From sequence record OM632671.1: DNA of 64,000 nucleotides; one strand, written 5' to 3'. Position 1 is the stretch's first letter; every line of letters starts with the position of its first letter. The stretch is from Escherichia phage BEU50. Of the stretch, positions 5,078 to 37,005 are shown piece by piece. A program made the position numbers and the translations under genes. The notes beneath the pieces are model-generated. The model ran no database searches and was not told where the DNA came from. It saw only the letters and a list, made by a program, of their open reading frames with translations.

Positions 5078-7789
5078 ATGAAAGAATTTTACTTAACGGT
5101 TGAACAGATTGGTGATTCAATTTTTGAACGTTACATCGATTCTAATGGCCGTGAACGTACTCGTGAAGTAGAATATAAACCATCACTGTTTGCTCATTGT
5201 CCAGAAAGTCAGGCTACGAAATATTTCGATATCTACGGTAAACCGTGTACTCGTAAGTTGTTCGCTAATATGCGTGATGCCTCCCAATGGATTAAACGCA
5301 TGGAAGATATCGGACTTGAAGCACTTGGCATGGACGATTTCAAATTGGCGTATTTGTCTGACACTTATAACTATGAAATCAAATACGACCATACAAAAAT
5401 TCGTGTGGCTAACTTCGACATCGAAGTAACATCTCCGGATGGGTTCCCTGAGCCGTCACAAGCAAAACATCCTATTGATGCTATCACCCATTATGACTCA
5501 ATTGACGACAGGTTCTACGTATTTGATCTATTGAATTCTCCATATGGTAATGTGGAAGAATGGTCTATCGAAATTGCGGCTAAGCTTCAAGAACAAGGCG
5601 GTGATGAAGTTCCATCCGAAATTATCGACAAAATCGTTTATATGCCGTTCGATAACGAAAAAGAATTGTTGATGGAATATCTCAACTTCTGGCAACAGAA
5701 AACTCCTGTCATTTTGACTGGATGGAACGTTGAGTCATTTGATATTCCATATGTGTATAACCGAATCAAGAATATTTTTGGCGAATCTACTGCGAAACGT
5801 TTATCACCACATCGTAAAACTCGTGTTAAAGTTATCGAAAACATGTATGGTTCTCGTGAAATCATTACATTGTTCGGTATCTCTGTTCTTGATTACATTG
5901 ACCTTTACAAAAAATTCTCTTTTACCAATCAACCGTCGTATTCTCTGGATTACATTTCAGAATTTGAATTGAACGTTGGTAAACTGAAATATGACGGCCC
6001 TATTTCTAAGCTTCGTGAAAGCAATCACCAACGATATATTTCTTATAACATTATCGACGTGTATCGTGTATTGCAAATTGATGCTAAGCGTCAGTTCATC
6101 AACTTGAGCTTGGACATGGGTTATTATGCTAAGATACAGATTCAATCTGTGTTTAGCCCAATTAAAACATGGGATGCTATTATTTTTAATAGCCTTAAAG
6201 AGCAGAACAAGGTGATTCCACAAGGTCGTTCTCACCCAGTTCAACCTTACCCTGGTGCTTTTGTTAAGGAACCTATTCCAAATCGATACAAATATGTAAT
6301 GAGTTTCGACCTTACATCTCTGTATCCAAGTATTATTCGCCAAGTGAATATTAGCCCGGAAACAATAGCAGGAACGTTTAAAGTAGCTCCACTGCATGAT
6401 TATATTAACGCAATCGCTGAACGTCCTTCAGATGTGTACAGTTGCTCTCCTAACGGCATGATGTATTATAAAGACCGTGATGGTGTAGTTCCAACTGAAA
6501 TCACTAAGGTCTTTAATCAACGTAAAGAACATAAAGGTTACATGCTTGCAGCTCAACGTAATGGTGAAATAATTAAAGAGGCATTGCATAATCCTAATCT
6601 TTCTGTTGACGAACCATTAGATGTTGATTATCGTTTCGACTTCAGTGATGAGATTAAAGAAAAGATTAAAAAGTTGTCTGCTAAATCTCTTAATGAAATG
6701 TTGTTTAGAGCTCAACGTACTGAAGTTGCAGGTATGACTGCACAGATTAACCGTAAATTGCTCATCAACTCACTTTATGGTGCACTTGGCAACGTTTGGT
6801 TCCGTTATTATGATTTGCGTAATGCTACTGCAATCACAACATTTGGTCAAATGGCTTTACAGTGGATTGAACGTAAAGTTAATGAATATCTGAATGAAGT
6901 TTGTGGTACAGAAGGTGAAGCTTTCGTTCTATATGGTGATACAGACTCCATTTACGTATCTGCAGATAAAATTATTGATAAGGTTGGTGAATCTAAATTC
7001 CGTGATACCAACCATTGGGTAGACTTCTTAGATAAGTTCGCTCGTGAACGTATGGAACCTGCTATTGATAGAGGTTTCCGTGAAATGTGCGAATACATGA
7101 ACAATAAACAACACTTAATGTTCATGGACCGAGAAGCTATCGCTGGTCCTCCGCTCGGTTCTAAAGGTATTGGTGGATTTTGGACTGGTAAGAAACGTTA
7201 TGCATTAAACGTGTGGGATATGGAAGGAACCAGATACGCTGAACCTAAGCTTAAAATCATGGGTCTCGAAACACAGAAATCTTCGACTCCTAAAGCAGTA
7301 CAGAAAGCTCTTAAAGAATGTATTCGTCGTATGCTTCAAGAAGGTGAAGAATCATTACAAGAATATTTTAAAGAGTTTGAAAAAGAATTCCGTCAATTGA
7401 ATTATATTAGCATCGCGTCGGTATCTTCTGCGAATAACATTGCTAAATATGATGTAGGTGGATATCCAGGACCTAAATGCCCGTTCCATATTCGTGGAAT
7501 TCTGACGTATAACCGGGCTATCAAAGGTAATACCGATGCACCGCAAGTTGTAGAAGGTGAAAAAGTATATGTTCTGCCTTTACGTGAAGGAAACCCATTC
7601 GGTGATAAATGTATCGCATGGCCTTCTGGTACTGAAATCACAGATTTAATTAAAGACGATGTACTTCATTGGATGGACTACACTGTTCTCCTTGAGAAGA
7701 CATTTATTAAACCACTTGAAGGATTCACATCAGCAGCGAAACTCGATTACGAGAAGAAAGCATCTCTGTTCGATATGTTCGATTTTTGA
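5078..7789 (+). CDS. 43: DNA polymerase gp43 (family B), RB69-type, 903 aa
   Basis: Translation matches the RB69 polymerase sequence as I remember it (MKEFYLTVEQIGDSIFERYIDSNGRERTREVEYKPSLFAHC...), exonuclease motifs FDIE and YNIIDV, polymerase motifs SLYPS, YGDTDS. Confidence 0.95.
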   Translation: MKEFYLTVEQIGDSIFERYIDSNGRERTREVEYKPSLFAHCPESQATKYFDIYGKPCTRKLFANMRDASQWIKRMEDIGLEALGMDDFKLAYLSDTYNYEIKYDHTKIRVANFDIEVTSPDGFPEPSQAKHPIDAITHYDSIDDRFYVFDLLNSPYGNVEEWSIEIAAKLQEQGGDEVPSEIIDKIVYMPFDNEKELLMEYLNFWQQKTPVILTGWNVESFDIPYVYNRIKNIFGESTAKRLSPHRKTRVKVIENMYGSREIITLFGISVLDYIDLYKKFSFTNQPSYSLDYISEFELNVGKLKYDGPISKLRESNHQRYISYNIIDVYRVLQIDAKRQFINLSLDMGYYAKIQIQSVFSPIKTWDAIIFNSLKEQNKVIPQGRSHPVQPYPGAFVKEPIPNRYKYVMSFDLTSLYPSIIRQVNISPETIAGTFKVAPLHDYINAIAERPSDVYSCSPNGMMYYKDRDGVVPTEITKVFNQRKEHKGYMLAAQRNGEIIKEALHNPNLSVDEPLDVDYRFDFSDEIKEKIKKLSAKSLNEMLFRAQRTEVAGMTAQINRKLLINSLYGALGNVWFRYYDLRNATAITTFGQMALQWIERKVNEYLNEVCGTEGEAFVLYGDTDSIYVSADKIIDKVGESKFRDTNHWVDFLDKFARERMEPAIDRGFREMCEYMNNKQHLMFMDREAIAGPPLGSKGIGGFWTGKKRYALNVWDMEGTRYAEPKLKIMGLETQKSSTPKAVQKALKECIRRMLQEGEESLQEYFKEFEKEFRQLNYISIASVSSANNIAKYDVGGYPGPKCPFHIRGILTYNRAIKGNTDAPQVVEGEKVYVLPLREGNPFGDKCIAWPSGTEITDLIKDDVLHWMDYTVLLEKTFIKPLEGFTSAAKLDYEKKASLFDMFDF

Positions 7790-7829
7790 TATAATGTCAT
7801 GGACGGTAAACTAATTAAATGAGAGAAAT

Positions 7830-8465
7830 ATGAAAACTACTCCTATTACTATCGCTATTGACGCAATCATAAAACAAGCTTCTTCTTTGGCCGCTATGGC
7901 CAAAGTAATTAGTCAAAACCCTGCTCGTTATAATGCTATTCTAGAAACTCTTCGACGCCCGGGACTTAGTAATTATGAAAGCCGAGTAATTATTACAGGT
8001 GTTGGTAAGAATGCTAATATTGCAACTAAAGCTTCTGAGACATTTGCTTCACTCGGTATCCCGAGTATGTACTTGAACACTGGGCATTATTCTCACGGTG
8101 ATGCAGGATTCATTGCGCCTAATGATGTGTTGATTCATATTAGTCGTTCTGGTAAAACTGAAGAAATGATAGGCGTGGCTAAGCATCTTAAAATGATTCG
8201 ACCGAACGTCAAACAGATTCTGTTGCATTGTAACCCAGACATTCCACAAGAAAATGAAGCCCTTTTTGATTACTCTTTCTGTACAGGCATCGCAGTAGAG
8301 GTTGATGAGAATTCTCTGGCTCCGACTATGTCCACTACATTGTTGTTAGCGCTTATCGATACGTTTGCTATCAACCTTTCGTCTGAACGTGGATTTACCT
8401 CTAATGACTTCCTTAAGTTCCACCCTGGTGGTGCACTAGGTGCCATGTTACGAGGCGAACAATGA
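7830..8465 (+). CDS. SIS-domain sugar-phosphate isomerase, KdsD/GutQ-type arabinose-5-phosphate isomerase catalytic domain without CBS domains
   Basis: Motifs GVGKNANIATKASETFASLG, HGDAG, ISRSGKT, LAPTMSTT, HPGGALG align with the KdsD SIS domain (ATFASTG, HGDLG, ISNSGES, LAPTSSTT, HPGGALG) from memory. Confidence 0.7.
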   Translation: MKTTPITIAIDAIIKQASSLAAMAKVISQNPARYNAILETLRRPGLSNYESRVIITGVGKNANIATKASETFASLGIPSMYLNTGHYSHGDAGFIAPNDVLIHISRSGKTEEMIGVAKHLKMIRPNVKQILLHCNPDIPQENEALFDYSFCTGIAVEVDENSLAPTMSTTLLLALIDTFAINLSSERGFTSNDFLKFHPGGALGAMLRGEQ

Positions 8466-8605
8466 AAGCAATAACAATAGGACTTTTACTATTGATGCTT
8501 GTCATGACTATCTACTGGAGCTTAACGGCTCCAGTAATGATTCCAACACTTGTAATTGGATGGATTATGATTGGACTACAAGCAAAGTATGAATGCTTTA
8601 ACTAG
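8462..8605 (+). CDS. Small hydrophobic membrane protein (47 aa), start overlaps the isomerase stop (ATGA)
   Basis: MKAITIGLLLLMLVMTIYWSLTAPVMIPTLVIGWIMIGLQAKYECFN; below the ORF-track size cutoff. Confidence 0.3.
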   Translation: MKAITIGLLLLMLVMTIYWSLTAPVMIPTLVIGWIMIGLQAKYECFN

Positions 8606-8618
8606 AATAGTGTACAAT
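8594..8618 (+). promoter_or_regulatory. Possible MotA-dependent middle promoter (MotA box TGCTTTA, 12 nt, TACAAT)
   Basis: aTGCTTTAactagaatagtgTACAAT about 30 nt upstream of the 8647 start. Confidence 0.35.
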
Positions 8619-8646
8619 ACTCCTACTTACCAATGAGGACCACAAC

Positions 8647-10332
8647 ATGAAAAAAGCTGTTATTCTTGGTGCTGGACTGGCAACTCGTTTATATCCAATT
8701 ACTCACCATATTCCTAAGGTGCTTGTTAACTATAAACAAGACACTATTCTGAGCAATTTGTATACAATTTATTCTGACCTAGGCGCAGATGAAATTATTG
8801 TAGTAGTTCATTCAAAATTTGCTGAAACTGTTCGAGCTTATTGTGAGCAAGAAGGGTTCAATGTGACTATTCGTACAGTTGATGAAGCGTATGGTTCTGC
8901 TTATGCTCTTGCTAAATTACACAAAGATTTAGACGGCCATAATGTAATTGTTAACTGGTGTGATATTATTCCGGATTTTGGTTCATGGTCTTGGAATGTT
9001 AACGCAATCTATGTTAAGGGTGACGAATGTCGATATAATTTCGACGGTGAAAATATCACTAACGTAGGTTCAACAGGTGGTAATGTTGTAGGAATTTATC
9101 AGTTCAAAGACTGGGAATTCTATATGGGTTCTACTGATGAGGAAATTCATGAATACTGCAAAGGACGTGATTTCGTAGAATTCCTTTACGGCAGCGCATT
9201 CAATAAATCAGAGCTTATGAATCTAATTGATTTAGGTGATATGCCTAAACTTGAAAAAGCTCATGAAGTTCGTGAACTTAATCGTAGTTTTAATGCAGTT
9301 GAAATTGGTGAAGAAACTGTAACTAAATTCGCATTAACCGAACAGGGCCGAGCTCTTCAGAAAGATGAGATTTCGTGGTATTTGAAAGTGAAATCAGATT
9401 CAGTCCCTCAGTTAGTTTCTGTTAATGAAAATAACTTTGAAATGGAACGCATTAAAGGTAAGCCGGCATTTGAATATATTAAATCCAAATCAAGTCTTGC
9501 TCGTCCACAAATTGTTGATGCAATTTTAGATGCACTGAAATTCAGCACAGACACTTATTTTGTAAGTCCTGAAACTGTTCGTCGTGATTTCACTAAAGAA
9601 TTCTATACGAAAGTTATTGATCGTTGTGAAAGCATTCAACCATTGATTGATTCATTTGGTAAAATCACACATGTGAACTACACTAAGATTGGACGTCTGA
9701 AGCCAATGCTGAAACAAGCTTTAGAACACCTTATTCGTTATCATAACCGTTCTCAGGGACAGTACTCTGTTATTCATGGTGACCCGAACTTCAGTAATAC
9801 TATGATTACTGATAACGGCGAAGTCAAATTTATCGACCCTCGTGGATATTTTGGCGAAACCAAGATTTACGGGCCAAAATTGTACGATGAAGCTAAAGTG
9901 CTTTACGCTGTTTCAGGTTATGATGAATTCAATGCTAATCCGACCTGGGGACAGTTTACTATTGATGAAACAACTTGTAATGTGACTATTAACATCAATC
10001 CATTAGTTTACAAATATGGAAAGATGAGTTCGTTTAACGAGTATCATCATTTGGCAGTGGCAATTATCTGGATTGCATTAGGTGGTTATTTCAAGAATAA
10101 TCCACTTAAAGCGGTAGCCGCATATTATAAAGGTATGGAACTTCTGACTAAGCAATTACGTAACATGGGCCGTGTACTTCAGGACGGCTCTATTAGTTAT
10201 GACGTAGCAGAACCTGTAACGGCTACTCTGATTACAAAAAATCCTGGTAAATGGGTACTAACTGATAAAGAAACTGGTGTTTCCTATCGTCCAATCGGTG
10301 GCGATATCACTCATCAATGGGAACGAATTTGA
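8647..10332 (+). CDS. Bifunctional sugar-1-phosphate nucleotidyltransferase (N-terminal) / APH-fold anomeric sugar kinase (C-terminal)
   Basis: N-terminal MKKAVILGAGLATRLYPIT (RmlA/GlmU-type G-x-G-T-R-L motif); C-terminal HGDPNFSNTMITDNGEVKFIDPRGYFG (APH/choline-kinase Brenner motif HGDxxxxN and DxxG). Confidence 0.65.
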   Translation: MKKAVILGAGLATRLYPITHHIPKVLVNYKQDTILSNLYTIYSDLGADEIIVVVHSKFAETVRAYCEQEGFNVTIRTVDEAYGSAYALAKLHKDLDGHNVIVNWCDIIPDFGSWSWNVNAIYVKGDECRYNFDGENITNVGSTGGNVVGIYQFKDWEFYMGSTDEEIHEYCKGRDFVEFLYGSAFNKSELMNLIDLGDMPKLEKAHEVRELNRSFNAVEIGEETVTKFALTEQGRALQKDEISWYLKVKSDSVPQLVSVNENNFEMERIKGKPAFEYIKSKSSLARPQIVDAILDALKFSTDTYFVSPETVRRDFTKEFYTKVIDRCESIQPLIDSFGKITHVNYTKIGRLKPMLKQALEHLIRYHNRSQGQYSVIHGDPNFSNTMITDNGEVKFIDPRGYFGETKIYGPKLYDEAKVLYAVSGYDEFNANPTWGQFTIDETTCNVTININPLVYKYGKMSSFNEYHHLAVAIIWIALGGYFKNNPLKAVAAYYKGMELLTKQLRNMGRVLQDGSISYDVAEPVTATLITKNPGKWVLTDKETGVSYRPIGGDITHQWERI

Positions 10333-11078
10333 TACATTATCTCTACAAAACTACTAATCTTATAAACGGTAAAGTTTATTTAGGAATGCACTCGGCTGAA
10401 GAAGCCGAGCCTTTAGATTTATATAAAGGTTCTGGTAAATTATATAAAAAGGCTGAAAGGAAATACGGTAAGGAAAATTTTCTTAAAGAAATCATTTCCT
10501 ACCATAGCTCAAGAGAAGAATTAAAAATAGCTGAAAAGGCTCTAATAACATTAGACATAGTTAAAGACCCGAATTATTACAATCTTAAAACTGGTGGCGA
10601 AGGTGGTTCTGACGGGTTATCCCAAAGGTCCAAGGATAAAATTTCTAAGGCAAATAAAGGACGTTTAGTTGGTGATAAAAACCCAAGATGGGGTAAAACT
10701 TTGTCAGCTGAATCTATAGCTAGGGGTAAAGAAAAGCACAGGAGGTATGGTAAACCTGCATTACATGGTCTAAAGATTAATGTAGATGGCAAATATTATG
10801 AATCCTGTCGGGAAGCGGCTAAAGATTTGGGTATATCTTCTGCCACGATTCAAAAGAGAGTAAAATCGCCTAAATATCTTAATTATCGATATCAGGACGA
10901 AAGCAAAAATGCTCACAAGTCTCAAAAATTTGTTAAAATAAACGAAAATTACTATGAATCTCTTAGGATAGCTGAAAAGAAAACGGGTATTCCTAGAAAG
11001 CGTATAGCTGATAATATTAAAAATTCTATTGAAGGATATTGCTATGAAACCATTACATCTTTGCGTGGACGTCGATGA
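10317..11078 (+). CDS. GIY-YIG homing endonuclease (seg-like) with NUMOD-type DNA-binding repeats
   Basis: N-terminal YLYKTTNLINGKVYLGMH (GIY-YIG core); repeated KISKANKGR / GK-x-x-S-x-E motifs; overlaps neighbours at both ends as typical of free-standing HEGs. Confidence 0.65.
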   Translation: MGTNLIHYLYKTTNLINGKVYLGMHSAEEAEPLDLYKGSGKLYKKAERKYGKENFLKEIISYHSSREELKIAEKALITLDIVKDPNYYNLKTGGEGGSDGLSQRSKDKISKANKGRLVGDKNPRWGKTLSAESIARGKEKHRRYGKPALHGLKINVDGKYYESCREAAKDLGISSATIQKRVKSPKYLNYRYQDESKNAHKSQKFVKINENYYESLRIAEKKTGIPRKRIADNIKNSIEGYCYETITSLRGRR

Positions 11079-11418
11079 TTGTATAACAGAGTGGAATAAC
11101 AATCGTGATTACGTGAACTTCAAACCAGACGTCGAAATGGTGTCTGCCATTAATGCCCTGTATGAGGCAGGGCATACCATAACGCTTTACACTGCTCGCG
11201 GTATGAAGTCAGTAGGTCCTGGTCGTATAGCAATTGACATTCTCCCAAGTCTGATTCAGAACTTGGCAAACATTGGCTTGAAGTACCATAATTTGCTAAC
11301 ACATAAACCAGTATATGATTGGATTATCGACGACAAAGCTATGCGTCCTGACGAATTCAAAGCTCTTATGAATAAAGGCGAATTCGAAACATTTAAATCA
11401 TATAAACCGAATCTATAA
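11044..11418 (+). CDS. HAD-superfamily phosphatase (small, KdsC/GmhB-like)
   Basis: Motif I LCVDVDDCIT (DxDx[T/V]); about 125 aa; ATG at 11044 preferred over 11029. Confidence 0.55.
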   Translation: MKPLHLCVDVDDCITEWNNNRDYVNFKPDVEMVSAINALYEAGHTITLYTARGMKSVGPGRIAIDILPSLIQNLANIGLKYHNLLTHKPVYDWIIDDKAMRPDEFKALMNKGEFETFKSYKPNL

Positions 11419-11464
11419 TAATTTAAGTAAGACCTGCAAAAACCATCGCATCAATTAACGTGAG

Positions 11465-12637
11465 ATGCAAAAAAAAATGAATACTTTTAAAATCGGAACG
11501 AATTTTGATTTAGCTCTTCTTGATAAAATCGTAGAGCTCAATAAAACTTATCCTAATAGCTTGATAAACGAAGTATACGGCTCTACAAGAGAAATGGCTT
11601 TTGTAGCAGCCAGACCTGATTTTAGGCTTCCTGACGTTGACAAAAAGATGTTAGAAGATTACGTTAAACGTTGTAACGAATTAGGTATTTGCTTTAACTA
11701 TACACTCAACACGATAAATCCTGGTTCAAAAAGAGAACTAGTTGAGTGGAAGAAGAAAGCTATTCAGGATTATGTTCAGTATCTTTGGTCAATAGGCGTA
11801 TGGCGTATTACTATCGCTAACCCTGTTGTTATGGAAATTGTTCGTGAAGTCAATAAAGACATTGAGATTGAAGTTTCAACAATTCTACATGTCGATGCTG
11901 TAACTCAAATCAAATACTTGCATGACCAATATAATATCAAAAAGGTCTGCTGTGGAATTCATAAGAACCGTTCAGTTTCTTTCCTGAAGCGTGCAGCAGA
12001 GTTTTGCAATAAGAACAATATAATATTTGAAGTTCTTGTAAATGAGTTCTGTTCTAATGCTGGTAAAGGGTATACAACACATTGTAGCTATCGTGACTCT
12101 TGCTATATTTTCCATAGTACTGATGTTACAGCTGATGATGCTAAATCCTTAAACGGATATCCAATGCAGCACTGTATTAAAGCTCGTGATACAGACCCAT
12201 TTAACTGGTTGAGAACTCGTTTTGTTCGTCCTCAAGATTTGAAACTTTATAATGATATTGGTATCACTCAATTCAAAGTTTCAGGACGTACAGGTAGCAC
12301 AGACTACATTTTGAAAGTTCTTGAAGCATACGCTTCTGAAAAGTTTGAAGGTAATTTGTTAGAACTGTGGAAGCCTTTAGAGACTATTTTCACTCTTGAA
12401 AACGAAACTGAGTTTTCACATACGGTAAATATTGAAACCTCTTTGTTAGATGGCTTTTTAGAAAAAAGGTGGTTCAGACATCCAGATTTCGATTGTGCTA
12501 ATGAAATCTGCGGGACGACGTGTACATATTGTGAAAGATATTATAAACGTCAGTTATCTAAAAATGGGTTATCAGAAAATTCTATATCTATTATTGATAT
12601 AACTAACTCTGACGACGCTTTGAGGTACCCGGAATGA
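11465..12637 (+). CDS. Cys-rich protein with U32-family-like features (function unknown)
   Basis: EVLVNEFCSNAGKGYTTHCSYRDSC and FKVSGRTGSTDY resemble U32 family signatures (E-x-F...C...C and K-I-E-G-R-x-x-S-x-x-Y); C-terminal CANEICGTTCTYCERYY cysteine cluster; weak, from memory. Confidence 0.3.
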   Translation: MQKKMNTFKIGTNFDLALLDKIVELNKTYPNSLINEVYGSTREMAFVAARPDFRLPDVDKKMLEDYVKRCNELGICFNYTLNTINPGSKRELVEWKKKAIQDYVQYLWSIGVWRITIANPVVMEIVREVNKDIEIEVSTILHVDAVTQIKYLHDQYNIKKVCCGIHKNRSVSFLKRAAEFCNKNNIIFEVLVNEFCSNAGKGYTTHCSYRDSCYIFHSTDVTADDAKSLNGYPMQHCIKARDTDPFNWLRTRFVRPQDLKLYNDIGITQFKVSGRTGSTDYILKVLEAYASEKFEGNLLELWKPLETIFTLENETEFSHTVNIETSLLDGFLEKRWFRHPDFDCANEICGTTCTYCERYYKRQLSKNGLSENSISIIDITNSDDALRYPE

Positions 12638-12873
12638 TTTCTAGAAAAACTTTTAATTATAAACTTAATGAAGAGATTTTGACTATGAAACTGAACACCA
12701 ACGAACAAATTCTTAAAAAGGCCCTTATGGGCCTGTTTGAAACCAAAGCGGCTAAAGTGATTAAAGAACCTATTCAATTGGAATACTATGCTGATGCATT
12801 TCTTCATAGTGTTCTTGGAAGTATCGATGCTGAAGCTTTACGTTATATCAACATTGCCAAGAAATTCAAATAA
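12634..12873 (+). CDS. Hypothetical protein (79 aa)
   Basis: ORF with ATG overlapping upstream stop. Confidence 0.3.
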   Translation: MISRKTFNYKLNEEILTMKLNTNEQILKKALMGLFETKAAKVIKEPIQLEYYADAFLHSVLGSIDAEALRYINIAKKFK

Positions 12874-12896
12874 GCTTTACGAATTGAGTATATAAT
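12874..12896 (+). promoter_or_regulatory. Possible middle promoter for gene 42 (GCTTTA MotA-box-like, 11 nt, TATAAT)
   Basis: aaGCTTTAcgaattgagtaTATAAT 20 nt upstream of the gene 42 ATG. Confidence 0.35.
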
Positions 12897-12915
12897 AAAT
12901 TGTATTGAGGTAAAC

Positions 12916-13632
12916 ATGGGAAAACATAACACAATGAAATATATCAAAGCCGCAGATTTTCAAGCCGCATTTAAAGCAGTCAATCGTGAAATTTTAGAAA
13001 ACCCGGAATTCGTAACTGATTCTCGTATTGGGCGTTGTAATGAAATTGGGTCTATGACAGTAGTTGTTGACACTCCATCATCATTCAAAATGACCGACCC
13101 ACGTATTAACCGCATCTCTTATGAATATGCCGAAGACTTCTGGAAGTTTATGATTTCTGGTGGTACCAACGCAGAAGAAGCGTTTAAGGCATATCCTAAT
13201 GTCGCTAAATTTATTTCTAAACCAAAATCAGATGTTTTGCCGGCGAACTTCAACACTTTCTATGGTCCTCGCATTGCGGCCCAATTACCAGCTCTTCTAA
13301 AAGAACTTAAAGAGAAGCCTAACTCTCGAAGAGTTGTGTTCCAAATTCTAGAAAGTTCTGATCAGGCTTTGCTTGATTCAGACGAAACGCTTGAATATCC
13401 ATGTACTGACTCAGTGACTTATTATATTCGTGATGGTAAGCTTTATACCCACTGTCATATGCGTTCTCAGAACTGTGCTGTTGTTATGCAGTTGGATTTT
13501 TATCTCCAAGGAAAATTACTTCATTATATCGCTAACGAATGTGGTGTAGAAGTTGGTGATTATACTCATACCATGGTAAGTGCCCATGTGTTTGAACGTG
13601 ATTTTGATTATGTTAAAGGATTCCTTGACTAA
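12916..13632 (+). CDS. 42: dCMP hydroxymethylase gp42-like (thymidylate synthase fold)
   Basis: TS-fold motifs (RRVVFQILESSD, EYPCTDSVTYYIRDGKLYTHCHMRSQN, H..VFERD); T4 position between 43 and uvsX. Confidence 0.7.
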   Translation: MGKHNTMKYIKAADFQAAFKAVNREILENPEFVTDSRIGRCNEIGSMTVVVDTPSSFKMTDPRINRISYEYAEDFWKFMISGGTNAEEAFKAYPNVAKFISKPKSDVLPANFNTFYGPRIAAQLPALLKELKEKPNSRRVVFQILESSDQALLDSDETLEYPCTDSVTYYIRDGKLYTHCHMRSQNCAVVMQLDFYLQGKLLHYIANECGVEVGDYTHTMVSAHVFERDFDYVKGFLD

Positions 13633-14531
13633 TGGCTATTTTCCGCGTACCTATTTTGAGTATGCGGTCTTATGAAACTGGACAGTATGCCATCCTTAAG
13701 GATGGCAACTTCCAACTTCATTTGCACCGTGCTAATCCAGGTGATGTGATTACATATCCACGTAATGCATCCGATATTAAAGAATGTGAACGTCTTTTCC
13801 CAGAATTTAAGTTTGTTCCATTATGGTATAAAGATAACGCGTATAACACTCGTAAATATTTCTGGTCTGAAAATGAATTTGTGGTTGATTCATTAATCGC
13901 TTATTATGATTGTGATTTTCTAATCACAGATATCACTGGATACGACGGCGCTTTTGATGTAGAATTCAATTTCAATATCACTGCAGACCCTAATAAACCA
14001 CGTTTTTATATTGACGAATTCTTAAAAACCGACATGTTGTCGGTTAATCGTTCAATCCAAACAACTGTGTTGAATAAACGTCAAAAGGAAGTGCTGGTTA
14101 ACGCAGGTGCAGATGGTAATAAGATTATCATAACCCAGAAAGTTATACGTCCTTCCATCATGCAGCGTCTTGTAGGTGATTTAGCTCCTATTCATCTAGA
14201 TGGTATTTTTCATCCATTTCGAATTAGTGACCCGTGCTATCGGTTTGAACAAGTGGTTGAATGTGCAATTCAATTAGGCCAACCGCTTTATATAACCGAT
14301 CCAAATAATAGCTTCGACAGAAATAAGTATCCTGAAGAAGCGCTGATTCGAATTTTTAAACCAACTAAAACTGAGTACTATCAAATTCTTAAAGGACGTC
14401 CGAAGATTCAATATTTCGAAAATCCTGAAGAAGTATTCCATCCAGGTCTTGGTGAGTTCATCTACTTTAATGCTTTAATTTCTTCACCGTATAATATACC
14501 TAAATACGAAGATGTCGTAATCGAGGAATAA
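13632..14531 (+). CDS. Hypothetical protein (299 aa) at the locus where T4 encodes beta-glucosyltransferase
   Basis: ORF with ATG overlapping gene 42 stop; no confident family assignment; position-based suspicion of a DNA-modification role. Confidence 0.4.
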   Translation: MAIFRVPILSMRSYETGQYAILKDGNFQLHLHRANPGDVITYPRNASDIKECERLFPEFKFVPLWYKDNAYNTRKYFWSENEFVVDSLIAYYDCDFLITDITGYDGAFDVEFNFNITADPNKPRFYIDEFLKTDMLSVNRSIQTTVLNKRQKEVLVNAGADGNKIIITQKVIRPSIMQRLVGDLAPIHLDGIFHPFRISDPCYRFEQVVECAIQLGQPLYITDPNNSFDRNKYPEEALIRIFKPTKTEYYQILKGRPKIQYFENPEEVFHPGLGEFIYFNALISSPYNIPKYEDVVIEE

Positions 14532-14532
14532 A

Positions 14533-15081
14533 ATGGCTAAAATTATTTTAGTAGATGGCCCGGATAATGCTGGTAAAACAACTTTCATTAATGACATAAT
14601 GGAAATTAGTGAAAGATATGTAAAGATTGATTTCCCTAAACGAACAGTTGATGGACGTTTCGATGTTAAGTCTCGAAATGAAGTTGGCTGTTTCGAAACG
14701 ATGTTGAATTATTTAGACCCTACTAAGATTTATCTGTTAGACCGTGGATATATTAGTAACTGGGTTTACGGACGTATTCGACAAGATGCGGACTCTGTTC
14801 TTGACGTTTATGAACAGGATTATGTTCGTCTTTGCCAAAACCATGATGTGTTCACAATTATTTTAACACGTAACGAAATGACTGAAAGTTTTGAAGACGA
14901 CCTTATTACTTTGTCTTCATTCGGTTTTAATACAGTCATTTCACATTTTGAAGAGTTTGCAATTCATAACAAAATCCAAACGTATCAATTACTTAATCAT
15001 GATGGTGCTAACAAAGTTATAGGATTTAATGCAAGCGAACGTAATGTTTTGATTACAGAAATCATCAAATGGGCTCGTTAA
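14533..15081 (+). CDS. P-loop nucleotide/nucleoside kinase-like protein
   Basis: Walker A VDGPDNAGKTTF (thymidylate/dNMP kinase-like), 182 aa. Confidence 0.5.
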   Translation: MAKIILVDGPDNAGKTTFINDIMEISERYVKIDFPKRTVDGRFDVKSRNEVGCFETMLNYLDPTKIYLLDRGYISNWVYGRIRQDADSVLDVYEQDYVRLCQNHDVFTIILTRNEMTESFEDDLITLSSFGFNTVISHFEEFAIHNKIQTYQLLNHDGANKVIGFNASERNVLITEIIKWAR

Positions 15082-15179
15082 GAGCCATTTAAAGTTTTAA
15101 ATGCTGTATAACCCTTAGTATATAATCATCTTATCTTTTAAACATGAGTAAAATATAATGATGCCTATGGAAAAATACA

Positions 15180-16352
15180 ATGTCTGATTTAAAATCTCGT
15201 CTGATTAAAGCTTCTACTTCTAAAATGACTGCAGACTTGACTAAGTCTAAGCTGTTTAATAATCGTGATGAAGTCCCTACTCGTATTCCGATGTTGAATA
15301 TTGCATTAGGTGGTGCACTGAATGCAGGGTTGCAATCAGGCTTAACTATTTTTGCTGCTCCTTCTAAACACTTTAAAACGTTGTTTGGGCTGACTATGGT
15401 TGCAGCGTATATGAAGAAATATAAAGATGCAATCTGTTTGTTTTATGACTCAGAATTCGGTGCTTCAGAATCTTATTTTCGTTCAATGGGTGTTGATTTA
15501 GACCGTGTAGTTCATACTCCGATTCAATCTGTCGAACAACTTAAAGTCGATATGACTAATCAGCTTGACGCTATTGAACGCGGTGATAAAGTTATTATCT
15601 TTATTGACTCGATTGGTAATACTGCATCTAAGAAAGAAACCGAAGATGCATTGAACGAGAAAGTTGTAGGTGATATGTCTCGTGCTAAGGCACTTAAATC
15701 TCTGTTCCGCATTGTGACTCCTTATCTGACTATTAAAGATATTCCATGTGTTGCAATTAACCATACAGCAATGGAAATCGGCGGATTGTATCCTAAAGAG
15801 ATTATGGGCGGTGGTACAGGTATTCTTTATTCTGCCAACACGGTATTTTTTATCTCTAAACGTCAGGTTAAAGAAGGTACAGAATTGACCGGTTATGACT
15901 TCACGTTGAAAGCAGAAAAATCTCGCACAGTTAAAGAGAAATCTACTTTCCCGATCACGGTTAATTTTGATGGCGGTATTGACCCATTCAGTGGCTTGTT
16001 AGAAATGGCAACTGAAATTGGTTTTGTAGTTAAGCCTAAAGCCGGTTGGTATGCTCGCGAATTCCTTGACGAAGAAACAGGTGAAATGATTCGTGAAGAA
16101 AAATCATGGCGTGCTAAAGCTACTGATTGTGTAGAATTCTGGGGACCTTTGTTTAAACACAAACCTTTCCGAGATGCAATTGAAACTAAATATAAACTAG
16201 GTGCTATCTCTTCTATTAAAGAAGTTGATGACGCTGTTAATGACCTTATTAATTGCAAAGCAACAACTAAAGTTCCGGTTAAAACTTCTGATGCTCCGTC
16301 TGCAGCAGATATAGAAAACGACCTTGACGAAATGGAAGATTTCGATGAATAA
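15180..16352 (+). CDS. uvsX: RecA-like recombinase UvsX
   Basis: 390 aa; RecA core (FAAPSKHFKT P-loop, IFIDSIGN); T4 synteny. Confidence 0.9.
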   Translation: MSDLKSRLIKASTSKMTADLTKSKLFNNRDEVPTRIPMLNIALGGALNAGLQSGLTIFAAPSKHFKTLFGLTMVAAYMKKYKDAICLFYDSEFGASESYFRSMGVDLDRVVHTPIQSVEQLKVDMTNQLDAIERGDKVIIFIDSIGNTASKKETEDALNEKVVGDMSRAKALKSLFRIVTPYLTIKDIPCVAINHTAMEIGGLYPKEIMGGGTGILYSANTVFFISKRQVKEGTELTGYDFTLKAEKSRTVKEKSTFPITVNFDGGIDPFSGLLEMATEIGFVVKPKAGWYAREFLDEETGEMIREEKSWRAKATDCVEFWGPLFKHKPFRDAIETKYKLGAISSIKEVDDAVNDLINCKATTKVPVKTSDAPSAADIENDLDEMEDFDE

Positions 16353-22941: not shown

Positions 22942-23463
22942 ATGGCACACTTTAACGAATGTTCACAACTTATTTCTGGTGTTGATAAAGCAGAAGAAGC
23001 TTATTTTAATGCTCTGATTCACGAAGATAAAGACCCACTGCAGGTAATGCTTGATATGCAGAAATCTTTACAGGTTCGTCTGGCAAATGACAAGCCTGAA
23101 CATAACAAACATCCTGATGAATTGGCCACTGCTGGTGATGTTGTTGATTGGCTGCGTAATCAGAAAGATTATATTGATGATGAATTCCGTGAACTGCTGA
23201 CTTCACTTGGTGGTATGAGCAATGGTGAGAAAACCGCTAGCTCTGTATGGAAGCCATGGAAAGCACAACATGCTGAATATCGAAATCGTCGTATCGATGA
23301 ACTGTCTCCTGAAGACCAGCTTGAAATTAAATTCGAGATGATTGATATCCTCCACTTTGTTCTGAATATGTTCCAAGGTCTGGGTCTTTCCGCTGAAGAA
23401 ATCTTTAAACTTTACTACTTGAAAAACCAACACAACTTTGAACGTCAGGATAATGGTTACTGA
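22942..23463 (+). CDS. 56: dCTP pyrophosphatase gp56-like (MazG-like)
   Basis: About 173 aa; T4 position near 61; motif content DELATAGDVVDWLRN...EFRELL...DILHFVLNMF. Confidence 0.6.
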   Translation: MAHFNECSQLISGVDKAEEAYFNALIHEDKDPLQVMLDMQKSLQVRLANDKPEHNKHPDELATAGDVVDWLRNQKDYIDDEFRELLTSLGGMSNGEKTASSVWKPWKAQHAEYRNRRIDELSPEDQLEIKFEMIDILHFVLNMFQGLGLSAEEIFKLYYLKNQHNFERQDNGY

Positions 23464-35904: not shown

Positions 35905-37005
35905 ATGAAAGTTATGTTTATCCCATCTCGTGCAGTCCCATTTAATCCTGACCGTGTACAAGGTGGTCTTGAAGCGGTTCATTTGAACGTGTTGAAATAT
36001 TTAGTTTCTATCGGTGCCGATATTGATTATATCGGCTTTGATAATGACACGTTTGGTGACTGGAAAGTTACACACCATCCTGTTGGTCATCTGACTAAAT
36101 TCAGTCTAGGTATGAGTTATACTATGGCTCGTAAGATTGTTGAACTAGCCGGCATCCATGAATACGATTTTGTTGTTACTATGGAACCGACTAAACTAAC
36201 CGTTCAGGCAATTAAAGACGCAGGTCTCTCTAAAGTTCATAAGAATTTTATGGCAACACCATTTGAACCAGTATCTCGTGGCATTGTTCAAATTTGGGAC
36301 CAGACTATTCAAATTCATAAGAATGGCGGTAAGAGTTATGCTCCTACTAAAGCCTTCCGTGAATTTGAACGCAAATATTGTTATATGACTTCAGGTCTGA
36401 CTGACAAAATCGATTATGATTATTGGCGAGCAAATCCGTTGTTTGAAGCCGAAGATTATCCGGTTATTTGTTTGACTGAAAAGCCAGAAGTTCTCCCGGC
36501 AACTGATTTGATTATTAGTGCTCAACGTTATGACACTAAGATGCGTCGCACTGATGTTGCTCTTGAAGCAATTAAAGCACTAGGCGAAAATGGTGTAGGA
36601 TACTGTCCTAGTAAATGGGCACCACCAGCTAAATATCCTGTTATTATTGATGCTCCACACAGTGAAATCATGGAACGTCTTAAAACAGCTAAAGCACTTA
36701 TTAATACGTGTCCTGACACAGGTACGGTAGAGAATAGTTCTATTGAAGCCATCTCTAAAGGTGTCCCTGTAATCCAGTTAGTTTTTAAGGATTATCCTCA
36801 TGCGACATTTGAATACGACCCAGATACTGTGCGTGTAGAAATTGATTCCTCTACTCCTAAGAAAGAAGTAGTTGCGCTTTACACAAAAGCTGTATTAGAA
36901 TTCACTGACACATACGAAGCTCGAGTTAAACGTGCTGAAGCAGTATGGAAGAAGTATAATCGAGATGCAGTTGTTGCGATGTGGGATAAAATCTTCACAG
37001 CGTAA
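35905..37005 (+). CDS. GT-B fold glycosyltransferase (candidate DNA hydroxymethylcytosine sugar transferase)
   Basis: C-terminal GT-B/GT4-like motif TGTVENSSIEAISKGVPVIQ (compare EGFG..LEAMA.G.PVI); located between topoisomerase and rIIA. Confidence 0.6.
   Translation: MKVMFIPSRAVPFNPDRVQGGLEAVHLNVLKYLVSIGADIDYIGFDNDTFGDWKVTHHPVGHLTKFSLGMSYTMARKIVELAGIHEYDFVVTMEPTKLTVQAIKDAGLSKVHKNFMATPFEPVSRGIVQIWDQTIQIHKNGGKSYAPTKAFREFERKYCYMTSGLTDKIDYDYWRANPLFEAEDYPVICLTEKPEVLPATDLIISAQRYDTKMRRTDVALEAIKALGENGVGYCPSKWAPPAKYPVIIDAPHSEIMERLKTAKALINTCPDTGTVENSSIEAISKGVPVIQLVFKDYPHATFEYDPDTVRVEIDSSTPKKEVVALYTKAVLEFTDTYEARVKRAEAVWKKYNRDAVVAMWDKIFTA

Follow-up and report, generated by a model that had tools for sequence, protein, structure and literature searches.

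Positions 7830-12637 of the 64,000-nucleotide stretch of Escherichia phage BEU50 analyzed here (sequence record OM632671.1; hereafter, the window) hold, with a probability of about 0.9, the sugar-activating half of the gene cluster by which RB69-like (Mosigvirus) phages hypermodify their DNA with arabinosyl-5-hydroxycytosine, together with a U32-family protein that would supply an alternative route to the hydroxylated base. We are slightly surer still that the known-pathway part is the published UDP-arabinose and 5-hydroxycytosine arabinosylation cluster of RB69-like coliphages, and nothing contradicting this part turned up in the analysis. An earlier, sequence-only reading had deduced a phage-encoded route from ribulose-5-phosphate through D-arabinose-5-phosphate to nucleoside diphosphate (NDP)-D-arabinose for DNA hypermodification, and had asked whether this route was already assigned to these genes. 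It is, in Thomas et al. 2018 (PMC6024577), Lee 2026 (PMC13326640) and, as relayed by Lee, He et al. 2026 on phage HY126. The core of that reading agrees with PMC6024577 and PMC13326640; it rediscovered work published from 2018 to 2026 by reasoning that was largely sound. What remains new is a specific, testable function that we propose for the U32 gene. The genes that carry the argument, all on the + strand, are:

7830-8465, +, SIS D-arabinose-5-phosphate isomerase (predicted), single-domain, 211 amino acids (RB69p055 orthologue; Pfam SIS, E=1e-10)
8647-10332, +, AfhE-type nucleotidyltransferase-kinase fusion, 561 amino acids (NTP_transferase, 8.5e-10, residues 3-99)
11029-11418, +, small HAD phosphatase of the AfhF type (RB69p051 orthologue; DVDD motif, TIGR01689); these coordinates are those of the open reading frame (ORF), whose likeliest start is the ATG at 11044
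11465-12637, +, U32-family protein, 390 amino acids, putative iron-sulfur (Fe-S) protein (RB69p050 orthologue; Pfam Peptidase_U32, 7.5e-11)
12916-13632, +, thymidylate-synthase homologue, predicted 5-hydroxy-dCMP synthase (RB69 gp48; Pfam Thymidylat_synt, 2.3e-15)
13632-14531, +, glycosyltransferase, proposed first arabinosyltransferase (RB69 gp46:47; phrog_3891, 5.8e-156)
14533-15081, +, thymidylate-kinase-like nucleotide kinase (RB69p045; phrog_761, 3.7e-45)
22942-23460, +, dCTPase gp56, which depletes the dCTP pool (tblastn, 96.5% identity to RB69p028)
35905-37002, +, second glycosyltransferase, proposed beta-arabinosyltransferase 2 (RB69 ORF003c; tblastn, 98.9% identity to RB69p003)

Nucleotide comparison places the window in an RB69-like, T4-like phage of the genus Mosigvirus. 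Over positions 7790-12900, the window shares 98-99% identity with Escherichia phage RB69 and some 150 relatives, NRG-P0074 being the top match (99.1%), and the gene order matches RB69p055 through RB69p045 in the RB69 annotation. Conservation of the tightly packed cluster genes in 192 phage records shows that these are no chance ORFs. Gene content and order, with 98-99% identity to RB69, are those of the arabinosyl-5-hydroxycytosine system known from RB69, HY126 (the Afh genes), Bas46/47, LC53, Maestro and DLP3. BEU50 differs from the RB69-type system in a GIY-YIG endonuclease gene between the fusion and HAD genes and in frames that are intact where the RB69 record is split; the pathway is unchanged. 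The chemical measurements come from RB69, HY126 and other phages, and for BEU50 the chemistry is deduced from the 98-99% identity. The four proteins described in the sequence-only reading (SIS, fusion, HAD and a Cys-rich protein) lie where it drew them on the + strand, and every motif that it named was confirmed.

The first of these proteins resembles the catalytic domain of KdsD and GutQ, as that reading had recognized. It matches phrog_5670 (4e-116) and the NCBIfam KpsF/GutQ (2e-32) and KdsD (7e-31) models, with scores under the full-length cut-offs that reflect the missing CBS domains. The arabinose-5-phosphate isomerases 3etn, 5uqi and 2xhz were retrieved from the PDB at 3e-25 to 4e-19, and the GVGK, HGDAG, SRSGKTEE and HPGGALG motifs align to the matching segments of the phosphosugar isomerase 3etn. 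Thus, the protein shares the SIS domain and motifs of KdsD, GutQ and KpsF but is single-domain, without their two CBS domains; their product goes to Kdo, whereas that of the window protein would go to UDP-D-arabinofuranose. Conversion of ribulose-5-phosphate to arabinose-5-phosphate is the role given to this isomerase in PMC13326640.

The 561-residue protein had been called a fusion of an RmlA/GlmU-type nucleotidyltransferase with an APH-fold kinase. Profile searches bear this out for the N-terminal half, which also matches PDB 1jyk at 2e-5. For the C-terminal half, the motifs are present (HGDPNFSN at residue 377 and DPRG at 397), the kinase-fold Pfam matches at residues 308-409 are weak (Fructosamin_kin, EcKL and RIO1) and a PDB sequence search gave no match; a kinase fold is listed for this domain in Table 1 of PMC13326640. 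The gene is one intact ORF in the window. The RB69 record NC_004928 splits it (ORF052c/053c), a sequencing error (PMC6024577).

The third protein was also read correctly as a small HAD phosphatase. DVDD lies at residue 14 of the ORF, TIGR01689 (capsule-biosynthesis phosphatase) matches at 2e-13, and PDB 1xpj matches at 1e-10. A closer match is PDB 9iqw, a "capsule biosynthesis protein" about 97% identical to the window protein (2.5e-80). This entry and 9iqc, 9ir2 and 9iqu presumably represent the structures solved for HY126. As these structures are ~97-98% identical to the HAD and thymidylate-synthase-like proteins of the window, the HY126 enzymology applies to near-identical proteins. Taken together, the searches upheld the domain calls of the sequence-only reading.

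The order of the sugar steps differs from the one first deduced. According to He et al. 2026, to the extent that PMC13326640 reports that work, AfhE of HY126 converts arabinose-5-phosphate to arabinose-1,5-bisphosphate and later serves in UDP-arabinose synthesis, and AfhF removes the 5-phosphate of the bisphosphate. In BEU50, the SIS isomerase would convert ribulose-5-phosphate to D-arabinose-5-phosphate, the C-terminal kinase of the fusion would form arabinofuranose-1,5-bisphosphate, the HAD phosphatase would strip the 5-phosphate to leave arabinose-1-phosphate, and the N-terminal nucleotidyltransferase would join this to UTP to give UDP-D-arabinofuranose. The starting arabinose-5-phosphate and the NDP-arabinose product of the sequence-only reading stand. 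Its free arabinose intermediate does not, since by the account in PMC13326640 the kinase precedes the phosphatase.

The acceptor differs as well. Both flanking genes had been placed correctly, a DNA polymerase upstream and a thymidylate-synthase homologue downstream; the name given to the latter, dCMP hydroxymethylase (42), does not hold. The protein reads RSQNCAVVMQLD at the equivalents of E. coli ThyA 166-177, the D169N plus N177D signature that marks 5-hydroxy-dCMP synthases (PMC13326640), and it is about 98% identical to PDB 9iqc, 9ir2 and 9iqu ("thymidylate synthases"). By these features the downstream gene encodes a flavin- and O2-dependent 5-hydroxy-dCMP synthase, not a dCMP hydroxymethylase. 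Its RB69 counterpart, gp48, makes 5-hydroxydeoxycytidine, incorporates 18O from O2 and binds flavin (PMC13326640). Tandem mass spectrometry (MS/MS) and nuclear magnetic resonance (NMR) revealed that RB69 DNA carries beta-D-arabinofuranosyl-3-alpha-D-arabinofuranose on 5-hydroxydeoxycytidine through an ether bond at C5, that the base fragment has m/z 128 (5-hydroxycytosine) rather than 142 (hydroxymethylcytosine), and that D-arabinofuranose is present on every cytosine (PMC13326640). Thus, the acceptor is 5-hydroxycytosine instead of the hydroxymethylcytosine first supposed. We infer that arabinosylated 5-hydroxycytosine would likewise replace cytosine in BEU50 virion DNA.

The remaining steps would follow from the downstream genes. 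The synthase would convert dCMP to 5-hydroxy-dCMP with flavin and O2, kinases would take this product to the triphosphate while dCTPase clears dCTP, and the two glycosyltransferases would place alpha- and then beta-arabinofuranose on the C5 hydroxyl. Arabinose was detected in RB69 DNA by Thomas et al. 2018, who proposed ORF055c and the re-sequenced single gene ORF53_52c for UDP-arabinose synthesis (PMC6024577), and UDP-arabinofuranose was the donor that worked in vitro (PMC13326640). The first glycosyltransferase is so called in the NRG-P0074 annotation, and RB69 gp46:47 is proposed as the first arabinosyltransferase in PMC13326640; a PDB sequence search with the window protein gave no match. 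Its gene is a single intact ORF, which RB69 NC_004928 splits (ORF046c/047c), and sequencing errors behind the split RB69 ORFs are reported in PMC6024577 and PMC13326640. RB69p045 is listed as a nucleotide kinase (PMC13326640, Table 1), and the assignment of ORF003c as a glycosyltransferase comes from PMC6024577 and PMC13326640. The sugar-activation steps and the hydroxylation of dCMP by the thymidylate-synthase homologue are established in near-identical proteins, and the kinase, dCTPase and glycosyltransferase steps were assigned computationally (PMC6024577, PMC13326640).

The Cys-rich protein, which the sequence-only reading saw correctly but gave no function, belongs to the Pfam Peptidase_U32 family. 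The match scores 42.2 bits against a gathering cut-off of 22.4, spans residues 98-290 and is accompanied by a weak match to UbiU (9e-4); a PDB sequence search found nothing. An AlphaFold2 model of the protein has a predicted local distance difference test score (pLDDT) of 93, and its best fold match in the PDB by Foldseek is 5d88, the only U32 structure. Nine cysteines are invariant in 77 homologues (C162, C196, C207, C213, C237, C344, C349, C353 and C356). C207 and C213 align with invariant cysteines of the E. coli paralogues UbiU, UbiV, TrhP and RlhA. C196 and C237 could be the other cluster ligands, a match to paralogue cysteines made by eye only.

We propose that this protein is a prephenate-dependent, O2-independent pyrimidine C5 hydroxylase that forms an alternative route to 5-hydroxy-dCMP, a function that we consider about evenly balanced between true and false. 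With the same even confidence, it would be the first hydroxylase of the U32 family with DNA precursors as substrates, an Fe-S, prephenate-dependent enzyme for cytosine C5 or uracil C5, and RB69-like phages would have two redundant routes, one aerobic and one anaerobic. The cellular relatives suggest the chemistry. RlhA forms 5-hydroxycytidine in 23S rRNA, for which prephenate and Fe-S biogenesis are required (PMC5727448); TrhP makes 5-hydroxyuridine (ho5U) in tRNA (PMC10990095, PMC5727448); and UbiU/UbiV carry out O2-independent hydroxylation of ubiquinone precursors with prephenate as the oxygen donor (PMC10990095). Most likely, the phage enzyme would act on dCMP, with dCMP and prephenate yielding 5-hydroxy-dCMP, phenylpyruvate and CO2 while two electrons leave through Fe-S clusters to an acceptor, a reaction modelled on the scheme proposed for UbiU/V (PMC10990095). 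The product would join the same kinase and glycosyltransferase steps as that of gp48. Prephenate would come from a phage chorismate mutase in related phages and from host PheA and TyrA in BEU50. Since dCTPase removes dCTP, a phage with only the O2-dependent enzyme should not replicate in anoxic gut contents; the second route would lift this constraint on DNA synthesis. In the searchable literature, which did not cover He et al. 2026 or Mahler et al. 2025, we found no publication linking a phage U32 or phage chorismate mutase to 5-hydroxycytosine.

The phage proteins share with RlhA, TrhP and UbiU/UbiV the Pfam U32 domain and the cysteines of the U32 motif, with a C-terminal Cys cluster as in RlhA. 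They also share a link to prephenate, which in phages is genetic, and the proposed C5 hydroxylation of cytosine is the RlhA chemistry. E. coli pairs O2-dependent with O2-independent routes in TrhO/TrhP and UbiIHF/UbiUV, a parallel to the proposed synthase/U32 pair. In contrast, the phage proteins lack DUF3656 and a UbiV-like partner, carry a CX4CX3CX2C tail and space their cysteines differently (C-x10-C-x5-C-x23-C, compared to C-x6-C-x15/16-C-x3-C in TrhP/RlhA and C-x6-C-x16-C-x38-C in UbiU), and their presumed substrate is a deoxynucleotide rather than RNA or a quinone. They appear to form a distinct, virus-borne U32 subfamily (phrog_5757).

The genetic link to prephenate comes from related phages. 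In Serratia phage LC53, a chorismate mutase gene (Pfam CM_2, E=1.7e-11, above the cut-off) directly follows U32 and overlaps its stop codon. Homologues occur in 56 phage records, where the gene adjoins U32 or follows the intervening small p049 gene; these are phages of Klebsiella, Serratia, Yersinia, Enterobacter, Proteus, Erwinia, Providencia, Edwardsiella, Pectobacterium, Morganella and Shewanella, plus coliphage EcS1. At the loci examined, chorismate mutase sits between U32 and the thymidylate-synthase-like genes. Even after rearrangement of the cluster in Shewanella phage Thanatos-1, U32 and chorismate mutase remain neighbors there and overlap. A second architecture occurs on an unrelated 199-kb viral contig with a U32 protein 48% identical to that of BEU50, which carries, in order, genes for a kinase, SIS, an AfhE-like protein, a fusion of DAHP synthase with chorismate mutase (L047, 8332-9387; DAHP_synth_1, 6e-24; CM_2, 2e-24), a HAD-like protein and U32. 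Three further contigs (L042, L044 and L045) show the same fusion pattern, and the contigs derive from large uncultured phages. As DAHP synthase catalyzes the first step of the shikimate pathway, such a fusion would be a means for the phage to raise prephenate supply.

To compare the distributions of U32 and the synthase, we scanned IMG/VR with each family separately and annotated 10 kb on either side of each locus with a phmmer panel. Fifteen T4-like Enterobacterales phages are the only ones whose contigs carry both genes. The 32 divergent U32 loci are all free of a D169N synthase within 10 kb, and 29 loci with the synthase are without U32. The two kinds of locus share the same partners, namely a GT1-like transferase, a Tmk-like kinase, a 402-residue glycosyltransferase-like protein (GT402), SIS and AfhE, and even gene arrangements run in parallel: synthase-GT1-kinase resembles kinase-GT1-U32, and synthase-GT402-kinase resembles GT402-kinase...U32. 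Mutual exclusion beside the same partners is expected if U32 and the synthase supply the same product, a hydroxylated pyrimidine deoxynucleotide. Further neighbors of U32 are dCMP deaminase, deoxynucleoside kinase, NT5C and nucleoside deoxyribosyltransferase. Some modules are minimal, with a transferase and U32, or a kinase, transferase and U32, and no sugar-synthesis gene. In many uncultured large phages U32 would be the sole source of the hydroxylated base, sometimes with a phage chorismate mutase or a DAHP-synthase/chorismate-mutase fusion. The thymidylate synthase that lies near U32 in one of the U32 loci (L034) was considered as a 5-hydroxy-dCMP synthase and rejected, as it is a canonical enzyme that retains D169.

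Among phage records, U32 occurs in 221, with all listed genera in the Enterobacterales plus Shewanella, and the 5-hydroxy-dCMP synthase in 373, of which 57 are from phages of Acinetobacter and 20 from phages of Rhizobium. In Acinetobacter phage Maestro, the cluster lacks U32, and no phages of strict aerobes are among the U32 matches listed.

Several observations weigh against assigning hydroxylation to U32. When the phage family was compared to single UbiU or TrhP sequences with hhalign, the alignments were weak (7-12%), covered the N-terminal barrel only and ended before the Cys region; the four-ligand mapping is therefore only partly supported, and local pairwise alignments of this region were unreliable. 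Hydroxylation in vitro has yet to be demonstrated for any U32 protein (PMC10990095). The link to chorismate mutase does not extend to BEU50: tblastn with three phage chorismate mutases found none in the 64-kb window (best E=1.3), nor in Mosigviruses in general, and all but two Escherichia phage records are without the gene. E. coli Dhakaviruses such as JS10 have the cluster without U32, so not all enteric phages need U32. Few independent lineages underlie the host-aerobiosis pattern, and the mutual exclusion of U32 and synthase covers only the 10 kb on either side of each metagenomic locus. RB69p050 appears once in PMC13326640, in a table, as a "sugar or heterocycle reductase".

The table entry represents the best surviving alternative, which we consider unlikely though worth serious attention: U32 may be a reductase of a sugar, heterocycle or flavin, for example one that provides reduced flavin to the 5-hydroxy-dCMP synthase, or a collagenase-like peptidase unrelated to DNA modification. 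The second Foldseek match of the U32 model is methylenetetrahydrofolate reductase, a flavin TIM barrel; a flavoenzyme such as the synthase needs some source of reduced flavin; and some U32 proteins are reported as collagenases (PMC5727448). However, a reductase partner should accompany the thymidylate-synthase-like enzyme, and the two are mutually exclusive outside one phage lineage. RB69 gp48 is moreover active in E. coli without U32 (PMC13326640). A reductase or peptidase role would also leave unexplained the chorismate mutase link, which occurs in two architectures, and the minimal transferase/U32 modules that have no sugar-synthesis genes speak against such a role.

It is improbable that U32 instead hydroxylates RNA, tuning translation through ho5U34 in phage or host tRNA or 5-hydroxycytidine in rRNA, as a mere neighbor of the DNA-modification genes. 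RlhA and TrhP, the U32 members tied to pyrimidine hydroxylation, do act on RNA polymers, and prephenate also feeds cmo5U synthesis via CmoA (PMC5727448). However, in divergent contigs U32 is packed, often with overlapping start and stop codons, with genes for DNA glycosyltransferase-like and dNMP-kinase-like proteins, dCMP deaminase, deoxynucleoside kinase and NT5C, and it takes the place of the dCMP hydroxylase in the same neighborhoods. The phage protein also lacks the DUF3656 domain of RlhA and the long C-terminal regions of RlhA and TrhP.

For the pathway as a whole, there is very little to favor the version of the sequence-only reading, in which NDP-arabinose made through free arabinose glycosylates hydroxymethylcytosine from a gene-42 dCMP hydroxymethylase. 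Thomas et al. 2018 first described arabinosyl-hydroxymethylcytosine (PMC6024577), the HAD step still reads "dephosphorylates Araf5p to Ara" in Table 1 of PMC13326640, and the thymidylate-synthase homologue occupies the position of T4 gene 42, with many GenBank records annotating a hydroxymethylase. For RB69 this version is contradicted by the base fragment of m/z 128 and by the 18O that flavin-bound gp48 takes from O2; the window protein has the D169N signature, and the HY126 enzymology relayed in PMC13326640 puts the kinase before the phosphatase. Least probable of all is that SIS, the nucleotidyltransferase and HAD are auxiliary metabolic genes altering host envelope sugars (Kdo, capsule or heptose), as database names such as KpsF/GutQ, "capsule biosynthesis phosphatase" and "phosphoheptose isomerase" might suggest, given that D-arabinofuranose is on every cytosine of RB69 DNA (PMC13326640), that the genes, which co-vary with those for DNA glycosyltransferases, are located between the polymerase gene and those for base modification, and that the HY126 enzymology, as given in PMC13326640, yields UDP-arabinofuranose.

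The assignment to an arabinosyl-5-hydroxycytosine cluster is sharpened by comparison with the glucosylated hydroxymethylcytosine system of T4 (gp42, gp56, gp1 and the alpha- and beta-glucosyltransferases), with which it shares its logic and genome position. In both, a thymidylate-synthase homologue acts on dCMP, a dCTPase clears the unmodified nucleotide, a kinase activates the modified one and glycosyltransferases decorate it. However, T4 makes hydroxymethylcytosine via folate, whereas the BEU50 type makes 5-hydroxycytosine via flavin and O2. A T4-type system would have a folate-dependent gp42 and a hydroxymethylcytosine acceptor; we found the D169N signature and near-identity to a flavin hydroxylase, and RB69 gave m/z 128. 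T4 draws on host UDP-glucose, whereas the sugar of the BEU50 type is D-arabinofuranose from a donor made by the phage. As NDP-arabinose is not known in Enterobacteriaceae (PMC13326640), the phage must make this donor itself.

Four further features on the + strand complete the cluster and its upstream flank. One of them is the polymerase gene noted above; the endonuclease and the 47-residue protein were missed in the sequence-only reading of 7830-12637, as was the 79-residue ORF just past its end.

5078-7789, +, DNA polymerase, the upstream flank (annotated in RB69 and NRG-P0074)
8462-8605, +, 47-amino-acid predicted membrane protein (RB69p054 orthologue; phrog_3610, 6.8e-27)
10317-11078, +, GIY-YIG/NUMOD homing endonuclease, 253 amino acids (I-TevI_DNA-bd, 3.6e-8; NUMOD1; NUMOD3; SegE_GIY-YIG; phrog_314, 3e-43)
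12634-12873, +, 79-amino-acid protein without Cys (RB69p049 orthologue; phrog_8601, 6.7e-51)

The start of the 47-residue gene overlaps the isomerase stop codon. The gene is conserved between those for the isomerase and the fusion, and its LC53 counterpart is annotated with transmembrane segments. The 79-residue gene, present in 162 phage records, overlaps the stop codon of U32 at its start. We considered it as a diverged chorismate mutase and ruled this out, as there was no Pfam match at E<=10, BLASTP gave E=16 and the hhalign probability was 0.2%; Yersinia phages carry both this gene and a separate chorismate mutase. The homing endonuclease gene is a mobile insertion outside the pathway. At the fusion/HAD junction, window positions 10329-11052 stand in for 25 bp of RB69, including the first HAD codons, and only three of the 30 best related records listed (NRG-P0074, a20 and JM17) cover the whole query; the others cover ~86% in two pieces. 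LC53 and four IMG/VR loci (L021, L025, L027 and L028) have a gap or endonuclease of ~640 bp at another site, between HAD and U32, which would make the cluster a possible hot spot of homing-endonuclease insertion. Scanning 7600-15300 for promoters and terminators revealed sites no more numerous than in shuffled sequence, and upstream of U32 no FNR-like site is visible.

Public records annotate the cluster inconsistently and often wrongly. In them, the fusion enzyme is labelled "dCMP deaminase" (NRG-P0074) or "glmU", the HAD phosphatase "phosphoheptose isomerase" and the 5-hydroxy-dCMP synthase "thymidylate synthase" or "dCMP hydroxymethylase", and in the LC53 record the glycosyltransferase is an "RNA polymerase binding protein". 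In Dhakavirus JS10 (L012), imm lies directly after DNA polymerase; the fusion, HAD, kinase, 5-hydroxy-dCMP synthase and glycosyltransferase genes are present, and U32, chorismate mutase and a recognizable full-length SIS isomerase are all absent. Dhakaviruses may use host KdsD or GutQ.

Some divergent U32 loci have contents of their own. On an 86-kb contig (L005, 8001-15428; ENA ERZ28598223), two U32 paralogues flank genes for NT5C, an NMN transporter, a deoxynucleoside kinase, an AlaX-like protein, a radical-SAM/SPASM protein and a nucleoside deoxyribosyltransferase, next to a giant GH43 protein bearing dockerin; the arrangement has the look of a module for deoxynucleoside modification, carried in or close to an anaerobic, cellulolytic Firmicute. 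On two large phage-like contigs with a DnaE-type polymerase (L004, 466 kb; L007, 60 kb), U32 follows dCMP deaminase, with UDG, a thymidylate-kinase-like gene and the 402-residue glycosyltransferase-like protein (faint QTMAN_N match) nearby. Possibly, these viruses have DNA with glycosylated 5-hydroxyuracil or 5-hydroxycytosine. For the phage-borne DnaK on U32-only contigs, the sole named match is a Lentisphaeria metagenome-assembled genome (61% identity).

If U32 is a prephenate-dependent hydroxylase of DNA precursors, this would explain how gut coliphages that destroy dCTP build modified DNA without oxygen, and prephenate-dependent hydroxylation would widen from RNA and quinones to DNA building blocks. 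The phage protein would also offer a soluble U32 enzyme with a small substrate for in vitro assay, which the field lacks (PMC10990095), and its gene would be a second marker, beside D169N thymidylate-synthase homologues, for 5-hydroxypyrimidine DNA in metagenomic viruses. Because the modification status of phage DNA under gut conditions decides its sensitivity to restriction and CRISPR, the finding would be relevant to phage therapy.

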